Of a DNA stretch of 64,000 nucleotides, positions 46,801 through 61,200 are shown one piece after another (position 1 is the first letter of the stretch; every line of letters begins with the position of its first letter). Below the pieces are notes generated by a model that searched no databases, was not told the origin of the DNA, and was given only the letters and a program-made list of their open reading frames with translations. A program made the position numbers and the translations under genes. The stretch lies in assembly GCA_963677705.1 (NCBI GenBank), contig OY782497.1:1900774-1964773 (forward strand), given 5' to 3'. The DNA comes from Myxococcota bacterium (lineage in GTDB: Bacteria > Myxococcota_A > SURF-8 > G963677705).

Positions 46801-49374
46801 ATTGCTTGCCGTTCCCGTACTCCAGTTGCCTACGCAGTCCACCGCACGGGTATGGAACCACCATTCACCATCAGCCAGGTTGCTATAGGTTCTCGCCGAA
46901 GCGGGCGCACCGCTGGCACCACCAACGCCGACATATTCGGTCGCGGTATCGGGCACGGAACTGGAACTGTGGTCAATGGACACGGAGTAACCGCAGATCG
47001 TGGTGTAGGAATCCGTATACCCCCAGTCGAAGAAGGGATCGTCGTTGTTGTACCAGGTGGTGTCACTGGAGTGTGACGAGGTCAAGGTTCCCGGTACGGG
47101 GCGAACCTGATCCATGTGATACGTGTAGTTGGCCGTTGCCGAGTTCCCCGCCGTATCATACATGTTCATGTAGATGGTCCGGGCGCCGGAACTGTCTTGT
47201 TTGACATAGCGATAGGCCGAGGTAGAGAAGGAAGAATAGGAACCGCCCCCCCACATATAACGCTGCTGATAGAAACTCAGGTTATCCGCCACTTGAATTT
47301 TATGGTAGTCGTTCTGACTCCACCACCAGATTCCGGTATCAGGATGTTTCCAGCAGGAAGACTTGTTCGGACCGGAATCCGAACAGAAGGGATCCCAATT
47401 GGCCAAAGGGCTAGCCGTCGTATACCGGCTGGGGGTGATATACGGCGGCGTGGTGTCCATGCAGTAGGTTTTACCGATATAATCGGTGGAAGCACTGCCG
47501 GCACCATCATAGTTGGCCCAACTGTTGGCGTAGCTGCTCCAACCCAGGTTTCCGCCATCACGGCCACGAATAGCAATCTTACGACACCCTTCGCCACCAG
47601 GCCAGTTCAAGGTAAAGGTACCCGCTGAGTTGGTTTGACGACAGGCAATGGTTCCCAAAGAACCAAGGGTTACACTACCGCCAAGGCTGCTCCAATCACT
47701 GTAATCAATGCAGGGACTCCCATAGGAGCCGCCAAATTCACCACCGGTGACTCTCACCTTCACCGAGGGCGCAGTATTCACGTAGACATTCTCGGTTGTC
47801 GAACCGTTGTTCACCACACGAACCGGCTGCGGATAGGGACGGATGGTTGTAGACCATTCATTGGCTAGCTTATACACATTGTTGGTGTGGGAATACGCAG
47901 CAAACTTGATCGTTCCCGACGTGTCGGGTGTACAGGTGAAGTACTGCGTTGTACTGGTTTCCGAGCCCATCGTCGGACCGGAGGTACAACCAACCGCAGA
48001 ACTGGACGCTTTGCGAACAATCAGTGAACTAGGCAGGTTTTGACCATTGGTCTGGAACGTCACACTGGTTCCGGCCCAGGGCAAGGTGGTGGAAGTCACT
48101 CCACTCCAGGTAGGGGTATAGACCAAAAGCATGTTCTCTGAAGGAGTGGAACCGATCAACTGACTGTTGGTCCATCCACCCGACGACGGCCACAAGAGAT
48201 ACCACAGAGCATAGCCACCTCGACGCGGTGGTTTGTCATACATCTTTGCCGTAGTATCTGTATTGTAAGTCGTGGCATTGATTTCGGGACTTAGATAGGT
48301 GTAATCCGTACCACTGGAAAGACCTTGAATCTGCGGCCTACCATACCAGGTTCCGTTGATGTTCGGTCGAGGCAGATGAGTACCGGAAACCCACCAATCA
48401 TGGGGATACCCGGCGATTTTCCTACCGGTCAAGGATTCATTATCCGCGTCCAGACCGGAAATGGTCGGTCCGTAGATGGGAAAAATCACCGAGTCGCCAC
48501 CATCGATGACACGATAACCGGCCCCGCTGGAACAATAACGCAGGCGGAAGCGGATCCACCCCGGCTTGGTGGGCCAGCAACTGAAGGAATAATATGGGTA
48601 GCTTGTTCCTGAAATATCCTGAATGGAGGTATGACTGGCAAAGTTCTGACACCCCGTGGTACCTTCGTAATCTACGACCAGATCATGGGGAACGTTGGAG
48701 CCGGAAAACGAGACGGAAAGCTGTTGGTCCCAGTATTTGGTTGCAGGCGTCGCACTGAGAAGGCTGATGTATTCACCCTTGTTGTTCGTATAGGTGATAC
48801 GCCAGGGCATACGGTATTCGTAGGTAGAGGAGTAGTGGTTGTTGTAGTTGGCAATCACCCAGATCCACTGCCGGGTTTGGGGCATTTTCAGAACACCGCT
48901 ATCTTCATCTTTTCCCTCTCTGGGGCCGCTGACATTGTCCTTGTCCACTACGTCGGTGGAGATGTAACTTCCAGCATCCTGATAAGCCATGTAGAGTTGG
49001 GTGTCGGCATAATGGGTACCCAGGGCAATACCACAAAGCGTGTTGGGAACCCAACCCTCATTGAAATAGAAGGGGCCACCACAGAAATCACTGCTATGGA
49101 AGGTGGAGTGATTACTGGTCTGAATACGCACATCATCATTTAACGTGGCATAGTGACTGACACCCAACCAGCCGTTTTTGCCGTTGATGTTGCTGGTTAC
49201 CCGCCAATCATAATGGAAGGCTCCATCATAGTTGACTTGGGCCAGGGCCGTCTGGGAAAACATGCCGACAACCAAAGCCAGCAACGCCAGCCCGATCCAC
49301 CGCCGAAACAGGCGCGTCTTTCCCCAGGAGGTCCAAGATTTTCCACCGTCTGAGTTTGTATTCTGGCCGTTCAT
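22813..49374 (-). CDS. Giant secreted multidomain surface protein (~8,853 aa). Sec signal peptide, ~45 Ig-like/FN3-like modules, 3 LamG/ConA-like and several CBM/discoidin-like jelly-rolls, C-terminal FGE-sulfatase-like domain
   Basis: Single uninterrupted 26.6-kb ORF. Start placed at M81 of the ORF-track protein (MNGQNTNSDGG...RLFRRWIGLALLALVVGMFSQTALAQ, a signal peptide), preceded by GGGGAG. The track start at 49614 would overlap the upstream gene. Recurrent ~95-105-aa modules bounded by D(T/R)T(A/G/P)P: Ig-like (...WxPxxMSLSNDGS...W...L...GxKTVYxxFRDxxGN) and FN3-like (...PxWxW...D..SG...Y.V.W...WYFRVxAxDxAGNxS). LamG signature AFGLLFRYVDDSEYYSF...WYRLKVIVRGSQIRAFVND. The C-terminus is FGE-like. 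Confidence 0.85.
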   Translation of the reverse strand: MNGQNTNSDGGKSWTSWGKTRLFRRWIGLALLALVVGMFSQTALAQVNYDGAFHYDWRVTSNINGKNGWLGVSHYATLNDDVRIQTSNHSTFHSSDFCGGPFYFNEGWVPNTLCGIALGTHYADTQLYMAYQDAGSYISTDVVDKDNVSGPREGKDEDSGVLKMPQTRQWIWVIANYNNHYSSTYEYRMPWRITYTNNKGEYISLLSATPATKYWDQQLSVSFSGSNVPHDLVVDYEGTTGCQNFASHTSIQDISGTSYPYYSFSCWPTKPGWIRFRLRYCSSGAGYRVIDGGDSVIFPIYGPTISGLDADNESLTGRKIAGYPHDWWVSGTHLPRPNINGTWYGRPQIQGLSSGTDYTYLSPEINATTYNTDTTAKMYDKPPRRGGYALWYLLWPSSGGWTNSQLIGSTPSENMLLVYTPTWSGVTSTTLPWAGTSVTFQTNGQNLPSSLIVRKASSSAVGCTSGPTMGSETSTTQYFTCTPDTSGTIKFAAYSHTNNVYKLANEWSTTIRPYPQPVRVVNNGSTTENVYVNTAPSVKVRVTGGEFGGSYGSPCIDYSDWSSLGGSVTLGSLGTIACRQTNSAGTFTLNWPGGEGCRKIAIRGRDGGNLGWSSYANSWANYDGAGSASTDYIGKTYCMDTTPPYITPSRYTTASPLANWDPFCSDSGPNKSSCWKHPDTGIWWWSQNDYHKIQVADNLSFYQQRYMWGGGSYSSFSTSAYRYVKQDSSGARTIYMNMYDTAGNSATANYTYHMDQVRPVPGTLTSSHSSDTTWYNNDDPFFDWGYTDSYTTICGYSVSIDHSSSSVPDTATEYVGVGGASGAPASARTYSNLADGEWWFHTRAVDCVGNWSTGTASNEKRRIRIDNTPPATPATPFAIITNSPAQSRLTYATKRPTVYFSGGNDPGATASPVTGSGTSYYKCQYQNASGTIFNCPSTVSYNNGSAQAYTFSSDLADGNYNIRVQAVDKASPANVSGWSSWFAFRVDTTAPTSTSMSIDQRPYTNSSNVTVSCAASDTWTNVEVNLSNSSTSFSTTGWKALDYWQSHFWTLTSGNGNRCVYAKFRDGGGNTTAAVLSSCTYVDTSAPVITAFKLNNDAARTNSTTVSWTASVTEYTSPIKYRLRRDTDASWPTTWTTVSTATPGVPNWTLSGSISLSACASPGCTRTVYLQVEDATSLQSSAASDSIVVDQHAPQSVAAAFTASAAGGTKRSATRNIELKISYANEAWTPVTARVCAVNNQTDSSCNNYTLTGTTTPIVWDLGSGDGTKNVYVWATDAGGNGTTTAATDQVILDTAAPTGTGVTIVDGSGTTLTATSTNIVNLKITASDPWNFPPSEPLQMRVSNYANFSSGTGWTNFTPTVSNWALINTPGTKWVYVQFRDGGNNTNPSPTSSPVYNADSVILDVGGPTVTMSINNGATHTNTTAVTLNYSASDPWTPIYYRVANDGASSWSAWHTVTGSSTAHVLNSVSGTRSVSMQFADGAGCVDSSTCAGTGNGINVTSVTDTIMLDQVAPVGSIVINNGAASTSNPVVSIKLQMSDAPSAWAPYEYMVCANADRSGCTWEAWNDGNSQTVEYFTRNFTMTSSNGLKTIYYWTRDAGGNARPVGSPYSDTIILDTEPPECTVQINSGNEWTGSTLVNLTVTDAGGDANTVDVSNDQTTWSTYTINGTHTGIPSWGLTGSDGVKTVYVRCYDALNNVQSPANSDTIKLDTTSPTTPGMPQTASWNDGSTDWTGTSHPGWTWSASSDPAPGSGIRGGNSYQVEWATVNTFVGATTLYVNSDAWTVSDTWANDTTYYVHVRAYDAMGNVSAWSSTGQIRLDTASPVNGTVSINSGDEWTTSDSVDLVLSAVDNETSVSEMRICNATSPGSLPECVWRPYSTIHNNWTLNSGDGVRAVYVWFRDPLGNESVMVSDTIIYDTTPPSVPGRPMTLTPACNRQPYWTWSASSDAAQGVGLHETQPYEVRWSQNSGFSTGVLTDSSAAANYLHTSDISTGDEETWYFQARAQDKAGHWSDWSTTGTYNLDCGAPTGTNMVINYDEDRTNSLNVNLNVGATNDVVKIAVKNDAPISDGEVDGLSQDFNPSDPAQNPYAWTLSGGSDGSRTVYVRLRDSVGNWTDMGEVSNADDIILDRTGPTAPSFSLAGGAQYTQSLNVTVDADATDAWQPVAMSLSNDGSQTGNWQNLPYGGTFALEGSDGLKTVTAWFRDGGENISATVLTDDIVLDRIKPEAPGIPMTSTPTGNQRPLWTWTAASDATSGLRSSNTYEVEWTLDASWATGIQSAFSSSTTYTHTVDLTGGNWYFRVRAYDNAGWASDWANGQVEVIQVSKPDQPVVYAVNSLPLGVDEGAYRIVLNPGTNSSSTEYAIYDETTSTYVNATTGMIGSGSPDWHTLNAWQGLNGYTQINRVGSAELHRFVVFAGFEGDISDASDPASVRSFDRTAPLAPAMMVSADTANNQVDISWSNNTAQVLTGAYTYDGDAPMSGDMAFASSRDTGFSQDYIFSLNAGEVCQHTSDWRHVRSIALGSDADQGLAYDARNNVFFTQDGASGNLNLFTVTDDGATWVKTELGGGMAACHGLAADGRYLYCVAAGEPRVYRYRLTGDPISGFSALGYFETSATLTAAGVAVQNGLLFVGGNGAANYPITYYNLRDWSASTGEWSETARGTHAASGAAGSLGVSCMTSNGQYLIGHENGQTSPVYRTLPEAMLLSRAEDDLLGSYVPAGGFTDRFEAAELDDSWNVIIGAAGANLVGGRLVTDGNEVFVTNDTVPSGGSVIFEADAYATNNGEAFGLTFGTVTYRNFKALATSGISYLDGKSGLYSYTDANPFKELDVREEPTVTQNSWIHLKLVLSGMSVRGYINGQLVGSLENVDFGVGSPIGLFSRKGLVRWDNVSIRVRQSGEAVSDYGAQDQAAPDVPTFASESHLTGDADWSADRSVELAWNVPNGNATTWYFQGAMIDAQDNESNILKNGDFEYGDGADATHFFYTTSCSTLGCGERISGNTNQFGGYSWNMTGKVSKAVNLLSQSLEGVANENLILEMDYYCPDASSGQHWQIFFRNATGDDRYGMAKAYLDDGNVVDKGSTGSFVCSSGERGHLVAHFQTGPNSSQMFRIYSNKPTGDQSMMIDALRVRRVQTAVMDSVIAGYDVLWDHVADSDNAGPNLDTAEAMMTSSDLADGIWYAHVKARDVAGNWSDSLHFGPYHIDGGAPARPVVTCSNHTDNVYTNATASTCNWTDTTGPSPGQYRYCLDSTNLCTPSNVVASPSTLVSGLTEGNHYLRVVNIDQGGASPIGVFRFRVDLSAPAQPVISCTDFTHNTWGSATGTVCSWTNTAGPSVGTQLYCMDTANGCAPSTEDADRSVDLSPLGNGTYYFRVLTQDAGGESAVSVFTIKSDHQAPTKPGTPVPSTGSPTDNQYPTWTWAPSTDAHSGLRTSQTYAVMWGTTPTGIAGTAFTTSNTYTHVTPLSGGTWYFRVVAYDALNNASLTSENGIVEVVTAQMPPAPVVTAMDDVPLTSHRGRVNVKVETGANPGTTTYAIWTNANGGKYMTTAGAFTSDTPVWRLYSQWGGTNGVVGTALSGASLIEIRTKSKLGTSESDYSPAATLVTKDRNEPEVMVGHDVPFSLTVDGNPGSSDPVEMKLAAGELFFEVERFSSISGATLTHSEDSLAGQYLAFSDASSQASMEFYIPEDGLYYLYLRGNARNSNENDFFYAFDSNSDVPAVFVSEDGYDSWGWGNAYSGVTLTEGWHTLTLKGQEPMRMDAVLLAKDETLEKALIAMNQADVVSYQLTGGGESQPMGGYEDDFESDHLVHYSTVLQDETWGIVSASGNQILTDELTAGAITGLVYDGMSTHDMVVSVEASNLDDDAFGLLFRYVDDSEYYSFTLRPEVGKAFLNKSATQFAGTGTAWHEADFTSAQNTWYRLKVIVRGSQIRAFVNDALVFDVVDISAPIQAGKAGLISANNQPYARFDHFRVAPLYSGAGIKVAVDQVDFVPPEVGTETISPVVGMTNNPIISLTLGVDDPAETFHFAPDMQDLAGNRGNLLQNPGFEQGAVGIWSFTGEGYVAEQGGDVVVPYLGERYGRFNKTTATARMMSQTVMIEPDDEAGMDSYQLSFRHNSTTGGNFTVKVDLYNGFTFVQTVMDESTDTGSNWLFYRSAPIAVDNSAGDRLKVSIGTTASTGQHYVDDVSLVQMGMEQIYTGVAGADVVWDQVADTRNATPDIDFAASAGDVAIVSESLADGEWYAHVRLADNAGNWSEPYHYGPWTLDSQPPVVNSFVVNDNDAFTNDVNITVTMDVTDVQTMKVDFVNPPASIEEAYASTYYMTLDGSNAEHCVYAQFFDVAGNMSEASDCITYDDEGPTGSIVLRNQLPAHETYSASSTVDVDVDMTDAWGPLSVRFSNSTNFDAASWEAWAPIDPVHPFTMLPGEGERTVYAQFRDGGGNITITPLTDSITVDMTGPVGSFAINGGDARTASTTLSLTPAAVDPWTPLQVAFGESSSPTNWTNYSDSMTLTYDLLSTTDGIKTLYMRFRDGGGNISSSVSQQIFLDRTGPSGSVVINAGATRTNSEDVSLALSASDTWVPIEMALSNDGSTYGSWQPFAASLSWTLEHVTDGVKTVYVKFRDAGLTESAAVTDTIILDTTPPESLALTIAGGAAVTALVPVEVSLAATDSWNPVEMSLDYNTVPEDTTTWQPFQSSLTWNFNPPNDTEGEKTICARFRDGGGNISAEICDSIYLDANAPDCTVEINNGDAYVAGSTVTLTITDTENDAHEMCVLTPSDMGVCTWVPFAASVPNFDLDAGDGEREVYVSCRDTVLNTGPVNSDSIIVDTLPPAAPGTPSVGGVAATNDTTPTWSWSFANDAGSGLAETNAYEVEWWPQGGGTTQIFVNAPSPETQNGSFTHATALNSLPEPGVTHYLRVRAVDKVGNVSDWSSTGTVLVDTTAPVVTSYELNNGAACTAVLSNVSRQTYTGSPYRMAYSPEDDASWQSWRTASTIMSSVYLDDQDGTRTVFFKMNDLAGNESASVSDTIILDRQAPTFAGPIALVDPTNDSTPTISWPAMVDALCGPRPTNTYRVRWAQTVEELTTTPNNQYTTETSFTFPTALADGLWYVRVTAYDGAGNNTSLETSFTVDTRPPFGSIVVASSVAPGPDYVNQQTVTLYLTVDESNTEMRFGETLGAYQAFATTASYTFVGGNGPKTVYAVFRDEAGNESEMLSDGTFLDITAPFPAPGTPVPDEAQTGSKTPHWSWTASGDADSGLNSVRPYTLFWSKDSNFITDVYSVDLLSNEYTHSAELTTGIWYAKVMARDMANNTVESGIGQVDVQTVSTPFEPIAVYTGDGTILGDGEAAIRLFIHRADGNSNAVTYAIQDVDSGLYLNYFTGTFNTAVEDWRSRDEWNGADNEGFLVTGLDDNQLYRFQVKAYLVGLEPTDFGPVLAATGYDRSLPLQSDGYIESQSWNGSEALASLAYDLDMGETTGALYPLDGGYSMYYVSQDLSSGSSIQVVSLADNNTVSNGEQQFMINRGENATLNAGPNPWTRIAGSAPFALHSDSGVTEGELIPDSFAGTRFAVPADARPMGLPTVIDILALGPQAEDEEIRIDRYVEGMGRIATDEVHALGADRHLRLTINAGSPPTRESAIIVKSDMPLLVYTGTEDGSSRSPVAPAGRDFLTVEGDAVRAVCLKDGVVAAYALSGTEVASQNCVAGEVVSMATGMGDMYGNGYALRLAGRDGAIFSAFGMTRVSEFETPEMAPAIPSNLLSSTFMLPMDAEWVSLATMREDATVSLYQADGTLVNTYEAVEGKVVISFVSKGLALVVNSPAAAYYNPTASSGFASALFGWPANHLVVQSHMDVVADRLAQMEWLGGGDGRNDTGVDFRLYEPMPGFTTTVESPDVALESVLNINGGSLGFSLRQDSTGAHYSCLVDQDSGMAYLMYQDTGLEETPSGVSDALKRFKSLVSGQASYSMRFEAQGNRVRCFIDDSLIGELYDERTGAETSYTLAGATYSAGTGDARNLKIAVANRTWTSDLTYDDHRAPGLATDLATTSGHLTGAWSGDTNVIFGWNPAVDAETSYYVAATPTDLDGNSANGFENGRFEKGVGAMAEGWTEDTNCADGFCSFRNDAVGMDSVTDGFFGGHSWYLNADGGEEHLMMVKQVENLKAGDSYVFEFDYYCMDTPPEGAGWKLLFRDGSVDGHPDLIADGVMANEAESRPTRSDNLDCSLGLPHGHYTGYVTVQNGYGDPSFYFRVFNNAGFSNGTELLLDNLSLRRATKVDAHAGLLGYAVVCNEDAGEITRTELDLNDSAITTNCTFATTGQNYYAHLRAVDEAGNWSDETATLGPFWIDKTPPTEPSGIAVTGMSPTNDQTPSWTWTPSTDAESGMPLSNVYRVYWSQSPLGETYSAWTDTNSFTHLDDLDEGTWYLKVEAYDAVGNTMMSSTYGEVEIDISGCIIDTLAISPDYYNGNNYNASSNVTVGLTVSGQGCDYVYLSNDPTEPGYGAFSSWDGSSLLNHTLIGGEGARTVYGWVRDNAGNISLFASDFTYVDQTGPDQVAPAPTTGTMRTADNTPTWTWTATTDALSGVRDAQAYHVFWSQDAGFGSGVFDGWSDNAFYQHTAALADGTWYIKVVPYDNVNNLGPQSEIGQVIVDTTPPSDATVVINNNDPYTTSLNVTLTLTANDPWQNLQVAVRNDSSAPSGGDWQDFGAGGTSTMAHTLAGGGDGVKTVYAWFRDAGGNTTAAAAIDHITMDTQGPDCAGPLTNHHSDSGFGVTLRWPACTDAYAGVNDIFLDVDVDDDGTWDAAYQRQIVDGSATEYYYPSLNVGTTYRFRIQARDNLGHTSAYLTDVNAVTIPDRDPPSVPGNLAASATAGQISLSWDPVPDAVSYNVYASQTASDLDNLVTSGSGWGSNFARAYDGDHGITSFWTGDSPSSLKYVTFYRVSEADISKVSLHFLDSDDRIYRRQNIEIYSGGSFTELRGFRADHGYSSMIFTPVTSKQIRIGFDGSTETQINSYNDQANLIEVEMYGSRLADGLATTSYTHTVGNSETWYYKVDAVDAAGNVSAHMTTAVEMRSPDMTPPVLVDLTATPHADEARWYPYNAGTVSWQFTDAETGVDGYSWVLDQAPATIPTETNMEAGVEHAFDSLTDGIWYFHIRAVNGDGTWSDTSHFQMNMDRTPPVIATLGSSSHPDIGTWYSSWNVDFEWSATDTAPIAGYSYVFNTSPTTTPNTTSQGVNTTVSLSATSDGVWYFHIRAKNEAGMWGTAKHFVVHIDSGPEAPVVTSATHGNQANWYVNNEPQFTWTANSVSGVAGYSFHMDQSSGTAADETTEGNVTSYTSGILADGEWWLHVRAQSNSGVWGPTAHYRTRIDNMPDAPVISSSTHPAPPSWRNHNDPVFSWTPGTDALTQSGVAAYSWTFTQNATDEPAASSMGNVTSASYTDVANGTWYLHVRSLNSAQPSGAWGPTAHFEIRIDTGTIPVVASPTHPDQSQWYDDNDPEFTWSCSSPSGVNGYSFTLDQTATTTPASLSTPDGSTSETYNDLAPGIYYFHVKCQNGIGVWGSAAHYKVKINAAPVIDDVTVSKTVVKVDGIDYQEATVVVSDLNGSTNIQDVEIRISQDSATWQNARGSFKWVRDVGFSENGDNGNDRVMLSAPTSSYADNGNQLTLLFRWTLTPGSYGDIQDNDIAAAASDFNGTTAWADYDLNFHTNIQIPVANNLSPVSGSWATSFRPTLAVTPVTDANIASNTVDSGDTEYYYFDVYSSPGGNGTHYQSGWVTSASWTPAFDIPNGTWYWRVTTRDQHGWQAGPGAEWIIRIDGEPPTIDSLTATPHVDQDQWYEHRDSTLMWSASSYSGIDGYSWLLDTNSSTTPDESMDGGSTVTSEYLTGLSDGEHWFHIRALNKAGMWGDPAHYRLRVDGTAPGMPTVISSSHPVQSNWYNAQDVHLEWSGLTDTSGVIEYSYTWVSGTTCQTPDTTGEGASTSVDFLTQPDGEYCFSIKAMNGANLWGPTATFLVHIDTSAPTWGVNDVWSTSHPDPVLWYNDSFPAFAWNEGISTSGIGGYSYVLDQAAGTIPDEVAETTSIRSWTSPDAKADGTWYFHVRAASQSGIWGDTKTIQVNVDTTGPVAPTVSSSTHPVQSNWYDSNDPQFSWTVSDISGLYASNRYAYKVSAGATDTVNPGTDTLTNTASVTLSNLADGTHWFHVRARNGAGIWGEVAHFQFNLDATAPGAPVIAGDAPHHVQCPQPVADREATFTWTLTDTAPIEHWQYVFSGSPAAIPSTITDQASLTIDTGADGNFYLRVRGQNAAGTWGAIETYCVLIDTTEPPGPTVTSSHPTQGYWYSHSTTATVNYEATDGSGITCYSYTWSQVNPNDPDETCDDYSSPGTTISPAGALAQGINYFNVRAQDGTGTWGDVTHFEIRIDSTPPSLDGSVVYSNTHPNSDTWYSFAGDAADTTDDADDPQFYWIPAEDQLGGGTVASRIAGYSFSLDQNPTGDPGTSVNTESLILHGGNPSFKYSNIENGEWYFHIRVKNNNLNGSNVSYNAWSSVYHYKIRVDMAPDGAAVVPGAEDERFGSESTDPYHQDDELEHYATVDSFYILQKEVSNSEYRACANAFAEDLAHPCTASNPYDPVCDGFGTFCSTSGYCAVGCEGDPENEDPFNQVNNYYTSSPNSPVVFVTHEQAKQYCRHNGMRLLTEHEFEWAIHGGTFTNWPWGDTMDDDRLNYNNLVGYPESVSSYGSGGSDGTATYNGVRVYNLAGNVAEWVEDYYGPYPTNISGDPADNPVLDLKSDCLTRCGGDPICVEGCDRKVFRGGAWNSGLSETRAFYRGYMLPGLGADYIGFRCGKTSPRP
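22816..23604 (-). other. C-terminal FGE-sulfatase (SUMF1-like) domain of giant protein, ~263 aa, lacking FGE catalytic cysteines
   Basis: ...HEQAKQYCRHNGMRLLTEHEFEWAIHGGT...YNLAGNVAEWVEDYYGPYP...KVFRGGAWNSGLSETRAFYRGYMLPGLGADYIGFRCGKTSPRP. The xRGGxW and GFRC motifs are present. No Cys-x4-Cys follows the GG(A/S)W motif. Confidence 0.7.
23695..28137 (-). repeat. Array of 12 divergent ~100-aa FN3-like tandem modules in giant protein (residues ~7160-8640)
   Basis: Consensus (T/S)HPxxxxWYxxxxPxFxWxxxxxxG(V/I)xGYSYxLDQxxxTxPxxxxxxxxTxxxxxxLxDGxWYFHVRAxNxAGxWGxxxHxxIxID. One 247-aa insertion follows copy 5. A 13th, isolated copy sits near the N-terminus (residues ~845-950, nt ~46765-47082). Confidence 0.7.
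40681..41172 (-). other. LamG/ConA-like jelly-roll domain 1 of giant protein (residues ~2815-2978); two further copies at nt ~37435-37932 and ~31315-31647
   Basis: NVIIGAAGANLVGGRLVTDGNEVFV...GEAFGLTFGTVTYRNFKALA...NSWIHLKLVLSGMSVRGYINGQLVGSLENV...WDNVSI. Copy 2 reads GLLFRYVDDSEYYSFTLRP...NTWYRLKVIVRGSQIRAFVNDALVFDV. Copy 3 reads GFSLRQDSTGAHYSCLVDQ...SYSMRFEAQGNRVRCFIDD. Confidence 0.5.
44239..46416 (-). other. Block of 7 consecutive Ig-like ~100-aa modules in giant protein (residues ~1067-1792). Similar blocks recur at ~4350-4912
   Basis: Boundaries fall at DTTAPTS, DTSAPVIT, DQHAPQS, DTAAPTGT, DVGGPTVT, DQVAPVGS, DTEPPECT and DTTSPTTPG. Positions come from a manual residue count, +/-30 nt. 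Confidence 0.5.
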
Positions 49375-49604
49375 GACGAACTCCCCATACCGTGTATAAA
49401 AGGTCTTTGATTCCTTACTTGTATAGTCTGGCTTCCGATCTCGTGAACGAAGGAAAGCTCCCCCGTTGAACGTGTCGCCTTGCCCATGCGGCGTTGACTT
49501 CCACGGACCTTGCGGCAAAAGCATCTGCCGTTTTTCTTTGTGTTGTCCGTTCATGGCCGTTTTCCTTTCGTTCACAAGATCGTTCTTTCTCGTCGATTCC
49601 ATCT

Positions 49605-52600
49605 CTACTGGCAACGCCCCCAGGTCAGATCACAGCTTGTATCCGACGGCTCGCAGCCGCGCAGGGTACTCAGATCATCTCCCATGTCACAACCAACGGT
49701 GCAGAACCCTCCTTCACAATGGGCTCCCTTCGTGATCTGGGCTTCCGTCTCAACAAAGCAATCGCTATCATTGACACAGGTGGGATAGGCATGGGGCAGA
49801 CTGCTATCGCCGCAGATACCGCGATCCTCATCGCAGGTATCTCCATTGGTACAATCCGCGTTGCTGAAGCAATCCACACGGCAGATTCCGGTCTGGTAGC
49901 CGTCTTCCACATCCCCATCGGCTTCCCCGACAAGCACGCAATAGCTACCACGCGGGCAATCCTGATGCACGGCCCCGGATTCACCTCCGCTACAGCGGGA
50001 GCGACACTCATCCGCCGGATTGGGCAGATCGCTCGCATCGCACTTTCCACGCTCCAAAGAGCAGCTCAGACAGGGACCGCAACCACGCGGCCCTTCCATC
50101 TGGACACCATGATCACAGCTTGTCTGGCAGGTTCCACCGTCACACCAACTTAGGAAGGGGCAATCCTCATCCGTGGCACAGGAGGGGAATTGATCCGGGT
50201 AGCTTCCCGTTCCACAGACACCACGATCGGTGTTACAGCTTTGCCCATCCGAACACTCGGAGTCTTCAAAACATTCAATCAGACAGCTTCCCGTCTCCGC
50301 ATCGCAATAACTGCCTCTAGCGCAGTCCGTATGGTCGGCACAAGGAGGTCGGTAATAGATGCAGCGACCATAGTCATTGCAGTATTCGTTGTTGCCGCAA
50401 TCACTGTTGTTGTCACAGTCTTTGCTACAGAAAGAGGGGCAATGGTTGCCTTCCGGACATTCCTGAGTACGGCAATAGCCGATAATCACGTCCACACCCT
50501 CTTGCGTAACCTTGCAGTCATCATCTACCTGACACCCTGTCTCGCAGCGATCCCCGACACAGACCATCGTGGGATTAATGGCCTTACAGTCGGCGTCCGG
50601 GTCAGCCTGGTCTGTATCACACAGAGCGAGGAACTTACATTCGCGGGTTTCGATTTCACAGTAGTGATTATCCGGGCAGTCTTCGTTGGTCGCACATTCG
50701 GCACAACGCCCCGCTGCACAGACCGATTCTCCCGAACAGGTTCCACCAAAGCTTCCGTATTCGGTACAATCATAGGTGCATTTTGCGGCGTCAAGGTCAC
50801 AGTAGGTGATAATACCACCGCCCAAGGGATAATCATGCTCGGCAGGCGGCGGATTCAAAGGCAGAACCGGTTGGCAATACGTCGCCGCATCACAATCATG
50901 GGTCTGCTGACAGATTCCATTGTAATCACAGAGCGAACCGCTGGGGCAGTCGGCATTGGTCTGACACTCGAAGGTACAGATACGCCCACCTTCCGCCAGT
51001 TCCTGGCAGTATTCATGAGTGGAACAACTTGGATCCTGACCATGACTGCAGGCGCATTCCCAATCCGCTTCACACTCGTTAGGCACGCAACGCCCTTCAA
51101 GTGTACACATCTCACCTTCCAGGCAATTGTCCAATACATTTTCGGCATTGCACTCGGACTGGCAGAGATTGAAGCCGGTTTCATCATCCATCGCGCAGTG
51201 ATAGTAAGACCCCATATCCTCAGCGCATTCGTTGTCATCCACACAGGTAAACACCGGATTGCAACGTCCAAGGGATTCGTCACAAACAAAGACCAGAGAA
51301 TCATCCGGGTTATCATCTTCACAGGGCGTCTCGGCATTGCAATCCTGAACGCAAAGCGTGGTTTGCAGGTCACAGTGGTAACCGGCGTCGCATTCCTCAT
51401 CGGTTTCATTGGGACAGGTATCGGCTTCCTCACAGATACCGATCTCATTGCAACGCTCGGTTTCCGCATCGCACCCGCTGGCATTGCCATAACAATCGAA
51501 GACGCATTGCCCATACTGGGCTTCGGTGCAGGTGGTTCCGTAGGTCAAGCCCTCACGGCAGCAGTACATATGACCTTGGCCGGCGCAATCTTCATCCGTC
51601 TGGCAACCGTCTTCCACACAGACCTGCTCTTCCATTGCACACTGGCTCTGTCCCGGCGGGCAGCCGCAGAACTGACCCTCCGGGCAGTCGCCGAAGTCGG
51701 AGCAGATGCCGCATTTTCCATTAAGCAGACACTGCTCTCCATCGGGACAGGAGGTCGGCTCGTCAGGATCGCAATCCTGAGTGCAGAAGCCGTAATCAGG
51801 ATGGCTTTCCTCATCCGGACAATAATGATACACGGGGCATTCACTCGTGCTTTCGCAGGGAACAGGATCATCCCCGGCTTCGGGATTGTAGGCACAGACA
51901 TGGCCATTGCAGACATACATACCTTCGCAGACATCCACGGTGGGACAACCGGGTACACACTCAAAGGTCGGGTTATCCCCTTCCATATCGCACTTGAACC
52001 CGACATTACACATCTCGTGTTCCACACAGCCGAGTTCCTCGGTTACACATTCACCATAGACGCAGTCCTGACCTTCAAAACAATCGTCCTCGTCCTCGCA
52101 GTCCATCACACAGATAAGAAGCTGAGGATCACAGTATTTCCCTTGAGGATGACAGAGCGAGGCTTCCGTCTGTTCCGTACAGGTGGTGACATCACCGTCG
52201 GGAACATCTCCTTCTTCACATTGGCCACGACTGTTGCAGAAGTAACCTTCCGAACAGCACGTATCGCCACTGCAGACGGTGTCGTTCAGGCAATCGTAGG
52301 CGCAACTGTTGTTGCCGCAATACTGCCCTTGAGGGCAATCCGTATCTTTGTTGCAACAAGGCGGAGAACTCTGACCGATACACATATCAAGCTGGCAGCG
52401 GCCACGGTCATCACAAAAGGCCATTGATGCGCAATTCAACTCCGGCGGGTTGCAGTCATAACCGCAGGTGGTGTTTTTGCAATACAGACCCATCTGGCAC
52501 TCATCATCCAGAGAACAAGCCTCCCCAAAGGGCAGTCCGTCCTGCTCTTCTTCCTCTTCAATATCGCCATCTTCCTGGCTCAACACGCAACGACCGTGAT

Positions 52601-53768
52601 CGTCGCAGACGGAACCTTCATCACAAAGAACATTTCCGCAAGCGGCGCCACACTGACAACGGCATTCATTGGGATCGGTGATGATCCAGCAATAGCGGCC
52701 AGGGCCGCAGTCATCATCGAACACACAAGGCGTATCGGCATTGTCTTCATCTTCATCACCGTCGATGTCGCCGTCCGTGTCATCCTCTTCATCCACATCA
52801 AGATCACCATCAGAGTCATCTTCTGGATCACTATCTTCATCCACATCCACATCCCCATCCGAGGGAAGCGAACAGGCCACATCGGGATCTCCGGAATAAC
52901 CCGGATCACAGAAGCAATCACCGCCTTCACAATGCGCATGAGTACCACACACCACATTCAGGCAAGCCGGATCGTCTTCCTGGTCCACCTCTTCATCTCC
53001 ATCCGTGGCGACATCACAGGGCGCATAGTCTTTGCTGAAGCGATAAACATTGTCGCCACAAGTCAACACCAATAGTTCCTGCGCCTCACGATAACTCAAC
53101 AGGCAGGCTCCGTTGGCGATGGAGACTTCTCCGTTTTCATCGCAGGTAAACTCACCGCCGAAGGCTTCTTCACCCAAACCATTCAACATGGAAATACTGA
53201 CGTTGCAGCCACTCTGGGAACCGGGACCGAAACGAACAGAGCGATACCCCGCCGAACCGGCGTCATCGGGATGAATACAATAGGTCGCTTGCGGGGGCGC
53301 CGGGCAGGTACAGGGATTTTCTGCATCCGTGTCGCCATCGGTTGCATCCTGGGTACAGGCAGCATTCGGATCACCGGAGAAACCATCATCACAGACACAT
53401 GTCCCGTTTTCGCAATGGGCGTTGGTTCCGCAGATCGTATCCCCGCAGACATCATCGTCGTCGTCCGTCGATCCGTCACCATCGGTCTGGTTATCATCAT
53501 CGTCGTCGGTTACATCGGCATCGGTGACATCATCATCGTCGTCGTCATCATCGCTACCACGGGTACATGTGCCATCCGGCTGGAGGGTGTAAAAAGGCTC
53601 ACAGACACAATTTCCACTGGCATCGTACACCTTGTGTTCACCACATGATTTTACATCACCGTCCCCACCAGAAATACCCCCATCATCACTACAGGCCGAA
53701 GCCATCAGCAGGGTTCCCAAGACGAGGACGCCAAGGGCCAGTCGTTGCATGTTCAGATAAGTCTTCAT
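49605..53768 (-). CDS. Acidic cysteine-rich repeat lipoprotein (EGF-like modules, poly-Asp tracts), ~1,388 aa
   Basis: Start at MKTYLNMQRLALGVLVLGTLLMASAC (lipobox M-A-S-A-C, GGGAG RBS), then SDDGG... The rest is >1,300 aa of Cys-dense modules such as CVCDDGFSGDPNAAC and CFCDPGYSGDPDVAC (EGF-like signature C-x-C-x2-G-[FY]-x-G...C), many C..G.YC..G.C units, and DDDDDDDDVTDADVTDDDDD / DGDLDVDEEDDTDGDIDGDEDED tracts. Confidence 0.7.
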   Translation of the reverse strand: MKTYLNMQRLALGVLVLGTLLMASACSDDGGISGGDGDVKSCGEHKVYDASGNCVCEPFYTLQPDGTCTRGSDDDDDDDDVTDADVTDDDDDNQTDGDGSTDDDDDVCGDTICGTNAHCENGTCVCDDGFSGDPNAACTQDATDGDTDAENPCTCPAPPQATYCIHPDDAGSAGYRSVRFGPGSQSGCNVSISMLNGLGEEAFGGEFTCDENGEVSIANGACLLSYREAQELLVLTCGDNVYRFSKDYAPCDVATDGDEEVDQEDDPACLNVVCGTHAHCEGGDCFCDPGYSGDPDVACSLPSDGDVDVDEDSDPEDDSDGDLDVDEEDDTDGDIDGDEDEDNADTPCVFDDDCGPGRYCWIITDPNECRCQCGAACGNVLCDEGSVCDDHGRCVLSQEDGDIEEEEEQDGLPFGEACSLDDECQMGLYCKNTTCGYDCNPPELNCASMAFCDDRGRCQLDMCIGQSSPPCCNKDTDCPQGQYCGNNSCAYDCLNDTVCSGDTCCSEGYFCNSRGQCEEGDVPDGDVTTCTEQTEASLCHPQGKYCDPQLLICVMDCEDEDDCFEGQDCVYGECVTEELGCVEHEMCNVGFKCDMEGDNPTFECVPGCPTVDVCEGMYVCNGHVCAYNPEAGDDPVPCESTSECPVYHYCPDEESHPDYGFCTQDCDPDEPTSCPDGEQCLLNGKCGICSDFGDCPEGQFCGCPPGQSQCAMEEQVCVEDGCQTDEDCAGQGHMYCCREGLTYGTTCTEAQYGQCVFDCYGNASGCDAETERCNEIGICEEADTCPNETDEECDAGYHCDLQTTLCVQDCNAETPCEDDNPDDSLVFVCDESLGRCNPVFTCVDDNECAEDMGSYYHCAMDDETGFNLCQSECNAENVLDNCLEGEMCTLEGRCVPNECEADWECACSHGQDPSCSTHEYCQELAEGGRICTFECQTNADCPSGSLCDYNGICQQTHDCDAATYCQPVLPLNPPPAEHDYPLGGGIITYCDLDAAKCTYDCTEYGSFGGTCSGESVCAAGRCAECATNEDCPDNHYCEIETRECKFLALCDTDQADPDADCKAINPTMVCVGDRCETGCQVDDDCKVTQEGVDVIIGYCRTQECPEGNHCPSFCSKDCDNNSDCGNNEYCNDYGRCIYYRPPCADHTDCARGSYCDAETGSCLIECFEDSECSDGQSCNTDRGVCGTGSYPDQFPSCATDEDCPFLSWCDGGTCQTSCDHGVQMEGPRGCGPCLSCSLERGKCDASDLPNPADECRSRCSGGESGAVHQDCPRGSYCVLVGEADGDVEDGYQTGICRVDCFSNADCTNGDTCDEDRGICGDSSLPHAYPTCVNDSDCFVETEAQITKGAHCEGGFCTVGCDMGDDLSTLRGCEPSDTSCDLTWGRCQ

Positions 53769-53827
53769 GATCCGGCTCCCGCCTGAAAAGTTGGTTCCAC
53801 AGGGTTTGTGATGGAACATCATCGTCT

Positions 53828-54259
53828 CTACTTCCTATGCAACTTGGGTTTGTTGGCTCGCACCGCTTCTTCCCGGACCTGATACTGCTGATCCAGAGTG
53901 AGAACAGTAATCGTCTCGGCAATCACACCCTTTTCCGGGATGTGCTTGACCTTCACTTCAACCGGTTTGCCCTTCAACAAGGCCGCCGTGGTCATGGTGA
54001 TGGCCAGCTTGGACGAGGCCTGGTTGACAAACTGAGTGGCTTCATCCACAAAAATCAACAAGGGGTATTTGTTCACTTTGAAATACACCTTACCGAATTT
54101 GTTCTCGGTACTGACCTTGGTTACTTCACCCCGAAAGGTCAGCTCTTCCACCACCTTGTCCTGAGTATCTTCCTTGTCCCCTGCCAGAGCGAAGCCCGGC
54201 ACGAGCCCACAGAGAAAAACCAGAACCAAACCGATTGCCACACGTTGATAGGTCATCAC
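53828..54259 (-). CDS. Small secreted protein of unknown function (143 aa)
   Basis: MMTYQRVAIGLVLVFLCGLVPGFALA|GDKED is a signal peptide with an AxA cleavage site. The product is Lys-rich. It lies 6 nt downstream of pilY1 and 5 nt upstream of the Cys-rich ORF. Confidence 0.55.
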   Translation of the reverse strand: MMTYQRVAIGLVLVFLCGLVPGFALAGDKEDTQDKVVEELTFRGEVTKVSTENKFGKVYFKVNKYPLLIFVDEATQFVNQASSKLAITMTTAALLKGKPVEVKVKHIPEKGVIAETITVLTLDQQYQVREEAVRANKPKLHRK

Positions 54260-54265: not shown

Positions 54266-57200
54266 CTATTTCACGCGATAAAACGACGTTTGAGCCCCAC
54301 TGATCGTCGGCGTTCCCGCCACCTCAATCAGAATCGGACTGACATCGGAGGCGGCCTTGACCATCGCCCCCATTTGCGTCACAACCACCTTAGACAACAC
54401 CGCACCGGTAATCTGTTGACCAGCGTATCCGGTGAAAACCGCAGTTGCATCATTGGAAAGATCCCGGTCATGATTGACATCCTGGACCACAAAGGACGGG
54501 TTGGTTCCCGTCTCGGCGCGGACGGTCATGAAAAAGCCACCGCCCTCTTTGTCTACGTTACGCAGATCACAGGTACCCTTCATGTTCGGGGTAAACGTTG
54601 TAAAGAAGTAGATCCATTCTTCCTTGGTCGAGCAACCCGTGGGATCACCCGCCCGGCAATTCTGCTGCATCACCACGCCATCGGTAATCACGCGCTCACC
54701 TTCCAGGCCGGCATTGCTATCCAGTTCGATATGCCAACCTTTGGCAATTTTGGTCGAATCGGAGGTACTGATCGTGCGCCACAGGTTGCCCGTTGTACCC
54801 AGACTATCCGAAACAGAGTTGCTGCGCAGATCGCCTTCGGTGACCATCACACCATCATCACGGTCCACGATACCGAAAACCTGCTGGTGATAAACCGCAC
54901 TGGTAGTATCCGAAGGATCTTCCAGGTGCTTGTCGAAGCTGTCGTAGAAGCTGTCATATTTTCCGGTACCGAAAAATACCATCAAACGGTTGTTGTTGGA
55001 CGAAGAGCCCAGAATATCATCCGTAGGAGTTTCGTCCGTGCGCCAGATTTCCGGCATCACGGTAATGGAACGGGGGTATTTCAGGAATTCATAATCCTGA
55101 TCGGTCGTTCCCACACGATCGTTTTCCACCTTCTGAGTGAAGTCACCGAGGGTTTTCCCACCCATACGGTAGGTGGCAAACAACACCTCACCGCTGACGG
55201 TGGCCATTCCTGCAGCACTCCCGATACTGAAACGGAGCAGGTGTCCTGCCAGGTCGCCGACATAAACGACATCTTCATAGCCGTCGTAATCCTGATCGCC
55301 AACGATAGGGTTGGACAAGACATTGTTGGTCGGCGTCGGGTTGGCATCAATGCCGGAAATATCCGCACTGGTAATGGCCAGTTTTTCAACCAGATCCGCT
55401 TTGTAGTCACCTCCGACACCGTTGAACAAATCCACAGCATAGAAGTAGCCCACTTTTCCAGCCTGCACGGCACTGCTTGAGGCATAACCGGAGCCGAAGA
55501 AAACCAGCCAACTTTCCGGAGGAGGATCTCCCGCACCCAACCTCACACGCCCCGTTGTGGGAACCGAGTAGGTCAGACCAAGATCATCATCGCTGTACCA
55601 CCACATGTATTCTGGGTTCAAATGACCGGAGGGAGCCTGAATTTCAAAGGCATAGTAGGTGTTTCCACCGCCACGGGAACCAACAAGCAACACGGTGGTC
55701 CATTCCGAGGCACCATCATTCCATACATCATGAACCACCGGAGTAAGGTTCATCATCGGTTGACGAAGTTGGGTGTAGAAGGGGCGGGCCAATTCCTTGA
55801 CCTTGGGAAGCACATCCCAGGGGACAAAGGCCCACAGTTCTTGTCCGTTGGTGGCATCGAAACAGTGCAACATACCATCGTTGGCGGAAACCAACAGCAC
55901 CGGATGGCGTTGCTGGAAATCATCGGAGTTGGTGTATTCGGAATACTTCTCCGGCCCCGCGCTGTCTTTCCATCCATTGGCCGGAGCACCACCGACATAC
56001 ACAGGCTCGGCATGGGTCGTATCCCCAAGCAACCACTCCTGATTATCATCGGCGTCGTAGCGGGAACGCATCATGTCCGTCGCAACGAGATTGACCGAGT
56101 AATCTTCATTGGTATCCATCACGACTTTGCGTGAGGGGCTTCCGCCCGTGTTATCGGTATTGTTCTTTTCGCCAAGGAACCATTCTAAAAGTAATTGTGC
56201 TTCTTCTTCGGTATCCACGCCAAGCTGATCTTTCAAAGACGCAGCAGCCGCAGCATTAATCGCCGTCTTGCCTCCGTTGGAAGCCGCCGGACTGTCAGGG
56301 ATTACGGTAAACACGGTACGACTTCCGGAACTGACCAACTCCGGCTCATCTTCGGTGTACCAGTCTTCGGTGCCATCATCCGCAGAGGTGCTGGAACTCC
56401 GGGAAATACACATCCCCAACACACAGACATCGCTTCCACTACAAGAGGAATCCACGCTGGAACAGGCGTTAATGAAGCAATACTTGGTACAGTCGGTGTC
56501 CGACGGACTGCAATCCGGGTGATACTGACAGGAGTCGCCTTGATCGCTGTGCGGGCATTCTTCGGTCTTTTCACACGTGATGGGAAGTCTGGCGGCATGG
56601 ACTTTCCCGCGCCAGTCGCGAGGGTCAAACATGATGTCGAAGATCATCGGCTCGTTGTCTTTCAACGTACCGCCACCAGAGGTTGTGGTGAACGAATCGT
56701 CATCACTGGATACAACAAACAGGGAGCGCGTCGTTCCGTAAGTGGATTCGCGGATCGGGTCGTTGAAGGTCCACCGCATGGGAATGTAAATCGGTTCCTG
56801 ACCTATGGTCAGGTCTGTCCATTGCAACGCAACCGCGTTATCCACCAACTCTTCCAACGGAGCAGGTACGGTGAGATTCAAAGGATTCGTCAGATCCACA
56901 GCGGGGAAGTCATCTTTTTTGAAGCGATAGAACAGCATCGCCCACCAATCTTCCCACAGCGTGGCCGGTTTCTGCAAACCGATGAACCCTTGGAAGAAGC
57001 TGGTTCCACCGGTACCGCCGATCAAGTGGGTCACATCACAGATATAGCCATACCCAAAATCATTTCCGGCGGTATAGGTATCCACGACGAAATTGAAGTC
57101 CACCTGATTGTAGGTTCCACGGAAGGTACTGATCTCCCAGACGACATCGAAATACGGCGTATCATCCGGTTTGTAGACATACTGAACGATGGTGATCTGA

Positions 57201-57813: not shown

Positions 57814-58323
57814 CTAGTCCGAAATCCGCGTCAATTGCTCAACCGTCTGCACCCACTTGACCACAGGTCCTGGCGTGCCATCAGACTGCAAAGGCCGATA
57901 CATGGAATCAATCTTGTACACAAAAATCCGCTTACGCTTCTGGGCGCGTTGCCCGGAGCCTCGGTTGTCGGTTACGGTATTGTCCACACGGGCGTCAATA
58001 GTATCAATACAATACATCGTATTCTGGTCACCGGGTGGGTAGTAATGCGTCGTCGCCGCATCCTGGCAATTGTAGCCCTCAAGGTTGGGGTTCGTAGACC
58101 CTGCAACGATGGTACGCGCCATTTCCGCCCCCGCTTCCGCCAAGGCCAAGCCGCGCACGCTATCCCGAAAAGCCATCGCGATACGCTGCTCCTGCACCGA
58201 GGTATTCATCGCCGCAACTCCCAGGAGCGAGAGCATAATCATCAACACCATCGACATAATCAGAGCCGCCCCACGGTTGGTAGCATAAAACCACAAGGAG
58301 GATCGCTTTGTATTGGACGCCAT
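57814..58323 (-). CDS. pilX: Type IV pilus minor pilin PilX
   Basis: ...NRGAALIMSMVLMIMLSLLGVAAMNTSVQEQRIAMAFRDS...LALAEAGAE matches the PilX N-terminal domain pattern (QRGAALIVALxLLxVLTLLGxAAM...E). 169 aa. Confidence 0.65.
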   Translation of the reverse strand: MASNTKRSSLWFYATNRGAALIMSMVLMIMLSLLGVAAMNTSVQEQRIAMAFRDSVRGLALAEAGAEMARTIVAGSTNPNLEGYNCQDAATTHYYPPGDQNTMYCIDTIDARVDNTVTDNRGSGQRAQKRKRIFVYKIDSMYRPLQSDGTPGPVVKWVQTVEQLTRISD

Positions 58324-58334
58324 ATCCTTCTCCC

Positions 58335-59387: not shown

Positions 59388-59866
59388 GGCCTGACCTGCA
59401 TGATAATGGGCACACGACCGGACGTAATCACCGGACGATCTGACCCCGCATCACTCGTATCTTCCCAACTGACCTGAACCTCTACAAAACGATAGGCTCC
59501 CGGCAGGTTGGGATCGACACCAATAGGACTGGTGATAATGGTACGCACGCTGTACTTGACCTGCTCAACGACATCCCCAGGGAGAGCCCCAGATTGATAA
59601 TCCATCGCATTCACATCCACCGTAGTATCGGAGTCTGCCAGACGAGGATCTGTCGTCATCGTTCCTGCCGCCATCTGGTAGAAATAGGGATAGCTTTTCA
59701 ATTCATTCAGCCGGGCGTTCATCAAGTTGGCACCGATACTGATATCCGCACCCAACACGTTTCCCTTGATTGCACTGACCTGCATCCCCGCCAAAGCAAA
59801 CATGCCGATGGAAACCAGCAGCACACTCATCAAAATTTCAACAATGGTAAAGCCTCGATACATCAT
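59384..59866 (-). CDS. pilV: Type IV pilus minor pilin PilV
   Basis: MMYRG|FTIVEILMSVLLVSIGMFALAGMQ is a class III signal peptide with a PilV-like N-terminal helix. 160 aa. Confidence 0.7.
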   Translation of the reverse strand: MMYRGFTIVEILMSVLLVSIGMFALAGMQVSAIKGNVLGADISIGANLMNARLNELKSYPYFYQMAAGTMTTDPRLADSDTTVDVNAMDYQSGALPGDVVEQVKYSVRTIITSPIGVDPNLPGAYRFVEVQVSWEDTSDAGSDRPVITSGRVPIIMQVRP

Positions 59867-59877
59867 CCAAGCCCTCC

Positions 59878-61159: not shown

Positions 61160-61200
61160 CGCTCTCTCTCCTTCTTCCATCCAAACGGTTGTATCGTTTT

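Follow-up and report, generated by a model that had tools for sequence, protein, structure and literature searches.

What kind of protein is encoded by the exceptionally cysteine-rich gene that lies, one small open reading frame (ORF) away, between pilY1, the gene of the type IV pilus tip adhesin, and a giant gene in a Myxococcota bacterium, and what might it do there? The gene occupies positions 49605 to 53768, minus strand, of the window, by which we mean the whole stretch of 64,000 nucleotides (nt) of contig OY782497.1 that was analyzed. A first-pass annotation, made from the sequence alone, had described its product as an acidic lipoprotein of EGF-like modules and poly-Asp spacers. We found a genuine gene under purifying selection, whose predicted product is a Sec- and signal peptidase II-exported lipoprotein precursor of conserved architecture, composed for the most part of a repeated eight-cysteine module and encoded beside the same neighbors in every ortholog locus that we read. 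The protein probably has a structural role in an adhesion apparatus linked to the pilus.

Gene and reading frame

The minus-strand ORF spans 49605..53822, and the coding sequence (CDS) starts at 53768 (MKTYLNM...), with a GGGAG ribosome-binding site 7 nt upstream; the same start is called in two orthologs. The product has 1,387 amino acids (aa) plus the stop, rather than the 1,388 aa originally given. Cysteine accounts for 181 residues (13.0%), compared to 0 to 2.4% in the neighboring proteins, and the sequence is strongly acidic (D 13.9%, E 8.4%, K+R 3.6%), with a mature protein of ~145 kDa and a net charge of ~-260. Apart from the lipobox Cys there are 180 cysteines, an even number, and all of them can pair.

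Because the composition is of low complexity, the first-pass annotation had worried that the frame might be an artefact or be broken at the poly-Asp codons, a concern that the relatives dispel. Both the 98% relative (P0001/L001) and a relative at 65-69% identity (P0002/L002) have an intact, collinear frame with only in-frame indels, located in the acidic linkers. Compared to L001, synonymous divergence (dS) is 0.081 and nonsynonymous divergence (dN) is 0.007 (dN/dS 0.083), with 181/181 cysteines conserved; compared to L002, synonymous sites are saturated and 147/147 aligned cysteines are kept, the other residues being 65% identical. From this dN/dS ratio and from the cysteines kept in the more distant relative, it follows that the frame is not an artefact. 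The poly-Asp tracts are not homopolymer traps either, since mixed GAT and GAC codons encode the D8 and D5 runs and mononucleotide runs in the CDS reach 5 nt at most. That the ORF might be spurious, reading through low-complexity DNA, or might be broken by indel errors, could be suspected from the acidic composition and from the long antisense ORFs that are present, but we give this possibility virtually no weight, as it is already refuted by the values above and by the same architecture in orthologs at 98%, 65-69%, and ~30% identity.

The apparent truncation of the Cys-rich protein in L002 is a local frameshift in a poor contig, and the frame resumes after ~20 garbled residues. Within L002:5948-15447, frameshifts break pilY1 and the three genes after it (small ORF, Cys-rich, and giant), meaning that either the assembly is of low quality or the locus is decaying. 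The antisense ORFs reach 745 aa within the Cys-rich gene (e.g., 50190-52427, plus strand) and 1,601 aa within the giant gene; they arise from the codon composition and might mislead gene callers.

A repeated eight-cysteine module

The protein consists almost wholly of small disulfide modules with acidic spacers, a layout that had been proposed from the outset and that its anatomy bears out. The parts are as follows, from the N terminus onward and after the complete gene.

49605..53768, minus strand: full CDS for the acidic, Cys-rich lipoprotein, 1,387 aa and a stop codon (ORF list and translation; orthologs P0001 at 98% and P0002 at 65-69%; dN/dS 0.083 against L001)
53691..53768, minus strand: signal peptide (aa 1-25) and lipobox Cys26 (LLMASAC), read from the sequence, with a lipobox-type Cys in the full-length orthologs inspected and GGGAG upstream
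53565..53645, minus strand: 4-Cys EGF-like half module (aa 42-68, CG.H...G.C.C..[FY]...C), from ortholog alignments and N termini, kept in nearly all full-length orthologs
53448..53564, minus strand: poly-Asp linker (aa 69-107, 56% D/E, D8 and two D5 runs), varying in length among orthologs by in-frame indels
53355..53447, minus strand: EGF-like module 1 (aa 108-138, 6 Cys), lineage-specific, with a PROSITE EGF_1 match and EGF_Teneurin and EGF_2 scores below the cut-off; not in P0003 or L007
53016..53312, minus strand: conserved, predicted 8-stranded beta-barrel, disulfide-braced (aa 153-251, 8 Cys), marker of the orthologous family
52872..52964, minus strand: EGF-like module 2 (aa 269-299, 6 Cys), lineage-specific
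52728..52871, minus strand: (D-x)n/DGD acidic linker (aa 300-347, 56% D/E)
49608..52730, minus strand: tandem array (aa 347-1387) of 8-Cys double-repeat modules, 17 complete and 1 partial, from the module hidden Markov model (HMM), the alignment, and a single-module model with a predicted local distance difference test score (pLDDT) of 93

Each module of the array comprises two units of ~22 aa in tandem, both of the myxobacterial Cys-repeat type (TIGR04201-like), and its fold may be similar to that of Dickkopf/Draxin. Across 43 aligned module copies eight cysteines are invariant or nearly so, and the consensus reads x-C-x2-D-x2-C-P-x-G-x-Y-C-x(2-14)-C-x2-D-C-x5-C-x2-G-x-V-C-x(1-3)-G-x-C. The predicted structure of a single module, modeled with confidence (pLDDT 93), is a duplicated turn plus hairpin, and its top fold match, a weak one, is Draxin's cysteine-rich domain (PDB 5z5k_B); a PDB sequence search with the module gave no match. 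From module 6 through module 13 the linkers have only 0 to 4 residues. The number of modules ranges from 9 to 17 among orthologs, with the N-terminal half-EGF and the barrel constant.

Searched as a whole, the protein had no match in Pfam or NCBIfam at E ≤ 1, and its public relatives are labeled "hypothetical protein"; it is annotated nowhere. The suggested Pfam/TIGRFAM check gave a mixed outcome: disulfide-module families did appear, in module-by-module scans only (Pfam at E ≤ 0.1-10, NCBIfam at E ≤ 1), and all of them stayed below the family cut-offs. For Dickkopf_N (PF04706) the best module scored 23.0 bits and others 11 to 15, against a cut-off of 25, and the ten-Cys pattern of Dickkopf does not fit a consensus with 8 Cys, a CC doublet being present in module 3 only. 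DUF7107 (PF23416) was matched by 7/43 modules at E ≤ 0.1 (best E 1.2e-4), individually scanned modules giving 12.0 to 12.8 bits against a cut-off of 24.6. TIGR04201 (Myxo_Cys_RPT) was matched by 8/43 modules at E ≤ 1, the best at 21.5 bits against a cut-off of 25, and in module 14 each half can be aligned to profile positions 4-21. The Cys-repeat region of NF033759 (TraA; cut-off 750) gave a weak match to 5 modules, and single modules gave weak matches to WAP and EB. TIGR02232 and DUF4215, the two families that had been put forward by name, were absent from the Pfam/NCBIfam matches of the whole protein (E ≤ 1) and of single modules; the main unit is a different 8-Cys double repeat.

Run exhaustively against 1.84 billion representative proteins, the module profile retrieved 1,930 proteins at E ≤ 1e-3, 276 at ≤ 1e-10, and 25 at ≤ 1e-30. 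When the ortholog alignment served as the profile, poly-Asp words overwhelmed the search, which gave fewer matches than the single sequence. Among the 148 best new module matches, the median Cys content is 12% and the median D+E content 16%, and ~63% have a lipobox-type N terminus. Relatives with a taxon label are Myxococcota or Myxococcales, and one module-sharing relative carries Kazal domains. A protein labeled Myxococcota (P0031) was retrieved by the module profile at E 9e-46 over 30 stretches and itself scores 277 bits with DUF7107, 198.6 bits with TIGR04201, and 86 bits with Dickkopf_N. Because of this retrieval and these scores, we regard the module of the window as a diverged version, in pairs, of the myxobacterial Cys repeat that was originally defined in TraA: it has the tandem ~22-aa Cys units of TIGR04201 and is homologous to accepted members of that family via P0031.

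Predicted lipid anchor and N-terminal region

The N terminus reads MKTYLNMQR-LALGVLVLGTLLMASA-C26, i.e., a basic n-region and a hydrophobic core before Cys26, followed by SDDGG. It has the charged n-region, the h-region, and a lipobox of the form [LIVMFWSTAG]2-[LIVMFYSTAGCQ]-[AGS]-C within the first ~35 residues (PROSITE PS51257-type), and the full-length orthologs inspected show the same layout, with a lipobox-type Cys after a hydrophobic segment. The lipoprotein call first made from the LMASAC lipobox is thus supported at the sequence level. Lys or Asp at position +2 are retention signals in Myxococcus xanthus and Escherichia coli. In the orthologs the +2 residue after the lipobox Cys is S, G, or A and never K or D, which suggests sorting to the outer membrane.

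The acidic runs are where they had been placed, with DDDDDDDD at aa 73-80 (53529-53552) and the D5 runs at 53493-53507 and 53451-53465. Both of the EGF-type strings that had been picked out also exist (aa 124-138 and aa 285-299), and PROSITE EGF_1 has 2 matches (aa 124 and 285), compared to a mean of 0.1 in shuffles of the same Cys-rich sequence (P(≥2) = 0.007). The two full modules score 19.4 and 20.0 bits with EGF_Teneurin, whose Pfam cut-off is 24.3, and 18.2 and 19.5 bits with EGF_2, whose cut-off is 22.1. Both are missing from the ~30%-identity orthologs P0003 and L007, which indicates that they are additions specific to a lineage rather than the protein's core. The EGF-like label therefore holds for two full modules and one half module, but these are a minority (the full type makes up 2 of ~22 modules), they remain below the cut-offs (18-20 versus 22-24 bits), and the full ones are absent from distant orthologs.

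Repeated EGF-like modules (CGTNEHCEDGTCVCDDGYE), much like the two of the window, make up a 958-aa bacterial protein (P0004; L005:522-3398) whose gene adjoins fliN and lpxK, so this module type occurs in other bacteria. P0004 was rejected as an ortholog, since only EGF-like modules are shared and the genomic context is unrelated.

True orthologs were defined by the barrel domain, for which a PDB sequence search gave no match. Candidate relatives in fold are the calycin-like barrels (lipocalin, streptavidin, and PliC types), in which eight antiparallel strands form a meander. Beyond P0002 and P0003, the barrel HMM marks just five of the 148 best new module matches; together they form seven 50%-identity clusters out of the 1.84 billion representatives, and two more orthologs came from PilY1 neighborhoods. 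One ortholog, RJO66426.1, is a "hypothetical protein" of a "Myxococcales bacterium" metagenome-assembled genome. Scans of the GTDB species-representative genomes with the protein and with the PilY1 alignment found no relative. The gene is confined to a small group of uncultured Myxococcota-like bacteria.

Conserved position in a type IV pilus operon

The Cys-rich gene is located in a same-strand series that runs, in order, PilT-like ATPase, PilC, pilin, fimU/GspH-like, pilV, pilW, pilX, pilY1, a 142-aa protein, the Cys-rich gene, and the giant gene. The neighbors are the following.

60734..63593, minus strand: pilin (ComP_DUS-type), PilC (T2SSF), and PilT-like ATPase
57814..60621, minus strand: minor pilin genes pilX, pilW, pilV, and fimU/GspH-like (Pfam PilX_N, PilW, N_methyl, and GspH)
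54266..57796, minus strand: pilY1 (1,176 aa), type IV pilus tip adhesin gene (Pfam T4P_PilY1, E 4.6e-18; PDB 3hx6, E 4.4e-21)
53828..54256, minus strand: secreted protein of 142 aa and no known family, encoded between pilY1 and the Cys-rich gene, without a match in Pfam or the PDB
22813..49554, minus strand: giant secreted protein of ~8,913 aa, counted from the ATG at 49554, which lies ~50 nt beyond the Cys-rich gene

From pilY1 onward the gaps are 9 to 60 nt, with ribosome-binding sites, and within the window no terminator-like site lies between the fimU-pilVWX-pilY1 cluster, the Cys-rich gene, and the giant gene. Given these short gaps and the place of the gene in the pilY1 operon, coordinated expression seems likely. 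A terminator-like hairpin (12 bp, with a T-run) is located directly after the pilin gene (60657-60629, minus strand) and would allow stronger expression of the pilin than of the minor-pilin/pilY1 genes downstream.

The order pilY1, small ORF, Cys-rich gene, giant gene is found in all nine divergent lineages that were read (window/L001, L002, L003/4, L007, L012/13, L014, L015, L017, and L020), across which identity falls to 37% for PilY1 and ~30% for the Cys-rich protein. In the window and the eight other lineages, the gene has the same-strand place in the fimU-pilVWX-pilY1 cluster that is expected of an accessory gene. A tenth ortholog (P0021), whose locus is outside those read, appears to share a contig with a PilY1 ortholog (P0179). 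Two proteins that share the module but not the barrel have unrelated contexts and are not beside pilus genes. The location between pilY1 and the giant, noted in the first-pass annotation, is therefore kept in every ortholog locus read, and it is all that the partner or scaffold role proposed there draws on.

One related locus departs from this arrangement. L016:7368-23780 (GCA_964400725.1; PilY1 31% identical) has fimU-pilVWX-pilY1, the small ORF, and a giant of at least 5,634 aa, without the Cys-rich gene. This suggests that the conserved core is pilY1, the small gene, and the giant, with the Cys-rich gene being either a clade-specific gain or a loss in the L016 lineage. Homologs of the 142-aa protein occupy the same slot in all related loci, L016 included.

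The complete giant ORF spans 22813-49614 (minus strand; 8,933 aa). The protein has a Sec signal and no C-terminal anchor, and Pfam recognizes Ig-like repeats (Big_13, Ig_J, and Y_Y_Y), a concanavalin A-like 3keto-disac_hyd domain, and a C-terminal FGE-sulfatase-like domain. Giants of 8,913 to 10,500 aa follow the Cys-rich gene wherever the downstream gene is readable; they share internal repeats at 25-38% identity, and their N termini differ. Module count (9-17) and giant size (8.9-10.5k aa) show no positive relation, in four loci only, which are too few for such a comparison.

PilY1 has a Cys-rich insert of its own (aa 405-462, 10 Cys in ~58 aa) that resembles the lipoprotein modules. It was tried as a copy of the same module and rejected, with a module HMM score of 0.1 and no match. 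The N-terminal half of PilY1 is conserved within this clade only.

Possible function of the lipoprotein

The reading that we favor, with a probability of roughly 0.45, is that the protein is a lipid-anchored, polyanionic, disulfide-stapled rod that would act as a tether or scaffold for a pilus-linked giant adhesin. Its gene would be co-transcribed with those of the minor pilins, PilY1, the small secreted protein, and the anchorless giant Ig/lectin-repeat protein; the lipoprotein would be exported and sorted to the outer membrane, and ~90 disulfides would be formed in the periplasm. As the modules abut with linkers of 0 to 4 residues, the array can be expected to make a stiff rod, protease resistant, strongly polyanionic, and tens of nanometers long. 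The variation in module number against constant N-terminal elements suggests a structural rather than a catalytic role. In a PilY1-linked adhesion apparatus, such a protein could serve the anchorless giant as its membrane tether or scaffold, and the Asp-rich linkers probably bind divalent cations.

Several points weigh against the tether or scaffold. Synteny and architecture are the whole basis of the putative link to PilY1 or to the giant, and the locus with the giant and without the Cys-rich gene (L016) indicates that the giant does not strictly need it. The topology is also the reverse of that of TraA, with the barrel near the lipid anchor and the repeat array distal, so the picture of a stalk presenting a head cannot be transferred directly. 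Finally, the protein could be oriented toward either the cell surface or the periplasm.

The same features could be explained without any partnership, if the protein were an independent surface-coat or matrix component (a protease-resistant shield, an inhibitor of proteases with several heads, or a polyanion that binds metals or minerals) that is merely co-regulated with the pili. This account, which we consider unlikely, agrees with the wide occurrence of the module in ~1,900 representative proteins, the best 148 being mostly acidic and Cys-rich and lipobox-bearing in ~63% of cases, and with the unrelated contexts of the two module-sharing proteins whose loci were read. The half-modules are also weakly similar to knottin, WAP, and carboxypeptidase-inhibitor folds (E 0.6-5), and Kazal domains occur in one relative, but the inhibitor-like fold matches are not significant. 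Against this account, every locus of the barrel-bearing subfamily that we read, down to ~30% identity, is part of the pilY1-giant block, a conservation that exceeds what loose co-regulation would predict. The operon could instead point to calcium, with the polyanionic lipoprotein concentrating Ca2+ as a reservoir or loader for a Ca-dependent PilY1, similar to TfcP in role and not in sequence. Its composition (22% D+E, poly-Asp and DGD-rich linkers, net charge ~-260) would suit such a sink, the gene is just downstream of pilY1 with one small ORF between in every ortholog locus read, and an accessory gene of a pilY1 cluster that aids Ca binding is known (TfcP, as cited in PMC13190605). However, there is no match to a Ca-binding family, no thrombospondin type-3-like D-x-D-x-D-G-x2-D-x2-D motif, and no heme motif, and seventeen conserved disulfide modules plus a barrel far exceed the needs of an ion sink. 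Selection, moreover, acts on the modules, where every Cys is kept, whereas the acidic linkers drift in length, and we therefore judge the calcium role improbable.

A eukaryote-like signaling mimic, such as an EGF- or Dickkopf-type ligand acquired by horizontal transfer, is far-fetched by comparison. It would account for the sub-threshold EGF and Dickkopf_N matches and for Draxin as the top fold match, but all of these family matches are below the cut-offs, and the modules have 8 Cys compared to the 10 of Dickkopf. The labeled relatives are Myxococcales or Myxococcota, and the best matches mostly have bacterial lipoprotein-type N termini; the GC content is like that of the flanks, and the gene is embedded in a bacterial pilus operon.

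Beyond the tether or scaffold itself, the block of pilY1, small protein, Cys-rich lipoprotein, and giant might form an undescribed surface apparatus coupled to the type IVa pilus. In it the tip complex would deploy or engage a megadalton Ig/lectin adhesin that is tethered to the outer membrane by the polyanionic rod with its ~90 disulfides, and the small protein would be an adaptor or chaperone. We put this forward as a speculation that is doubtful in its full form. If the products do cooperate, type IV pili of this lineage would be coupled to a giant adhesin in a manner undescribed for model systems. This strictly conserved block joins the PilY1 tip adhesin to one of the largest bacterial proteins known, and we find it a more intriguing lead than the Cys-rich protein alone. 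The analysis gives a testable identity to a protein left blank in every database, with a new barrel that marks a very small family, and the Cys module, which is compact, confidently modeled, and tolerant of variation, may be of interest to protein engineers.

Other genes of the window

The rest of the window looks like ordinary chromosome, with genes of complex I, MTHFR, a Ser/Thr protein kinase with a PEGA domain (16327-18585, minus strand), and a response-regulator protein (20007-22544, plus strand). Kinases with PEGA domains together with response regulators are typical of Myxococcota-like genomes. The region 14001-16000 has a GC content of 0.43, compared to ~0.57 elsewhere; it covers a 456-aa ORF (14949-16319, minus strand) without a Pfam match and adjoins a stand-alone FGE-sulfatase-domain protein (13296-14933, plus strand). 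This low-GC stretch may be foreign DNA.

Comparison with known systems

The protein is a distant relative of the myxobacterial Cys-repeat surface proteins and scores below the curated thresholds of EGF, TIGR04201, Dickkopf_N, and DUF7107. With TIGR04201 and TraA of M. xanthus (NF033759) it shares disulfide units of ~22 aa (C-x-x-D-x-x-C-x-x-G-x-x-C-x-x-x-G-x-C), arranged in tandem, in secreted myxobacterial surface proteins. For the TIGR04201 repeats of TraA a rigid stalk has been proposed (PMC3325183). Unlike these, the units of the window are fixed as 8-Cys pairs and remain below the cut-off (best 21.5 versus 25). TraA has a MYXO-CTERM tail and a PA14 head, whereas the window protein has an N-terminal lipid anchor and no PA14 head, is far more acidic, is encoded in a pilus operon, and has its globular domain near the anchor.

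The other families are more remote. The Dickkopf N-terminal cysteine-rich domain (Dickkopf_N) differs in score (23.0 bits at best versus 25) and in number of cysteines (8 versus Dickkopf's 10); a fold may be shared with Draxin's C-terminal one, to which the match is weak. DUF7107, which with Dickkopf_N is the commonest weak Pfam match of the modules and is strong in P0031, is a family without an assigned function, is not mentioned in the literature searched, and has a cut-off that lies above what the window protein scores. In their six-Cys layout and their C-x-C-x2-G-[FY]-x7-C signature, the two full EGF-like modules (aa 108-138 and 269-299) agree with EGF-like domains (PF07974 EGF_2, PF23106 EGF_Teneurin, and PS00022), but they score below the Pfam cut-offs and are absent from the ~30%-identity orthologs.

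As for the genomic setting, PilY2 is an accessory gene of the Pseudomonas minor-pilin/pilY1 cluster. TfcP and MXAN_1370 are accessory genes of such clusters in M. xanthus, TfcP being located beside pilY1.1 and aiding Ca binding (PMC13190605). The window gene resembles them in its place within the fimU-pilVWX-pilY1 operon, with short gaps, and differs in lacking any sequence relation to TfcP, MXAN_1370, or PilY2, in coding for a far larger protein, and in having a giant gene downstream; the Cys-rich protein has no CxxCH heme motif. In the literature that we searched, neither a Cys-rich lipoprotein nor a giant gene is described downstream of pilY1.

A further parallel is PulA, the pullulanase of Klebsiella, which a type II secretion system carries to the cell surface. 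It is likewise a lipoprotein encoded with a type-4-filament machine, but it is an enzyme and has no Cys-rich repeats. By analogy, a type-4-filament machine might in principle deliver the Cys-rich lipoprotein to the surface. Compared to all of these systems, the new elements are the 8-Cys double unit with its fixed form, the extremely acidic composition, the barrel domain, the lipid anchor at the N terminus, and, most of all, a position between pilY1 and the giant that does not vary.

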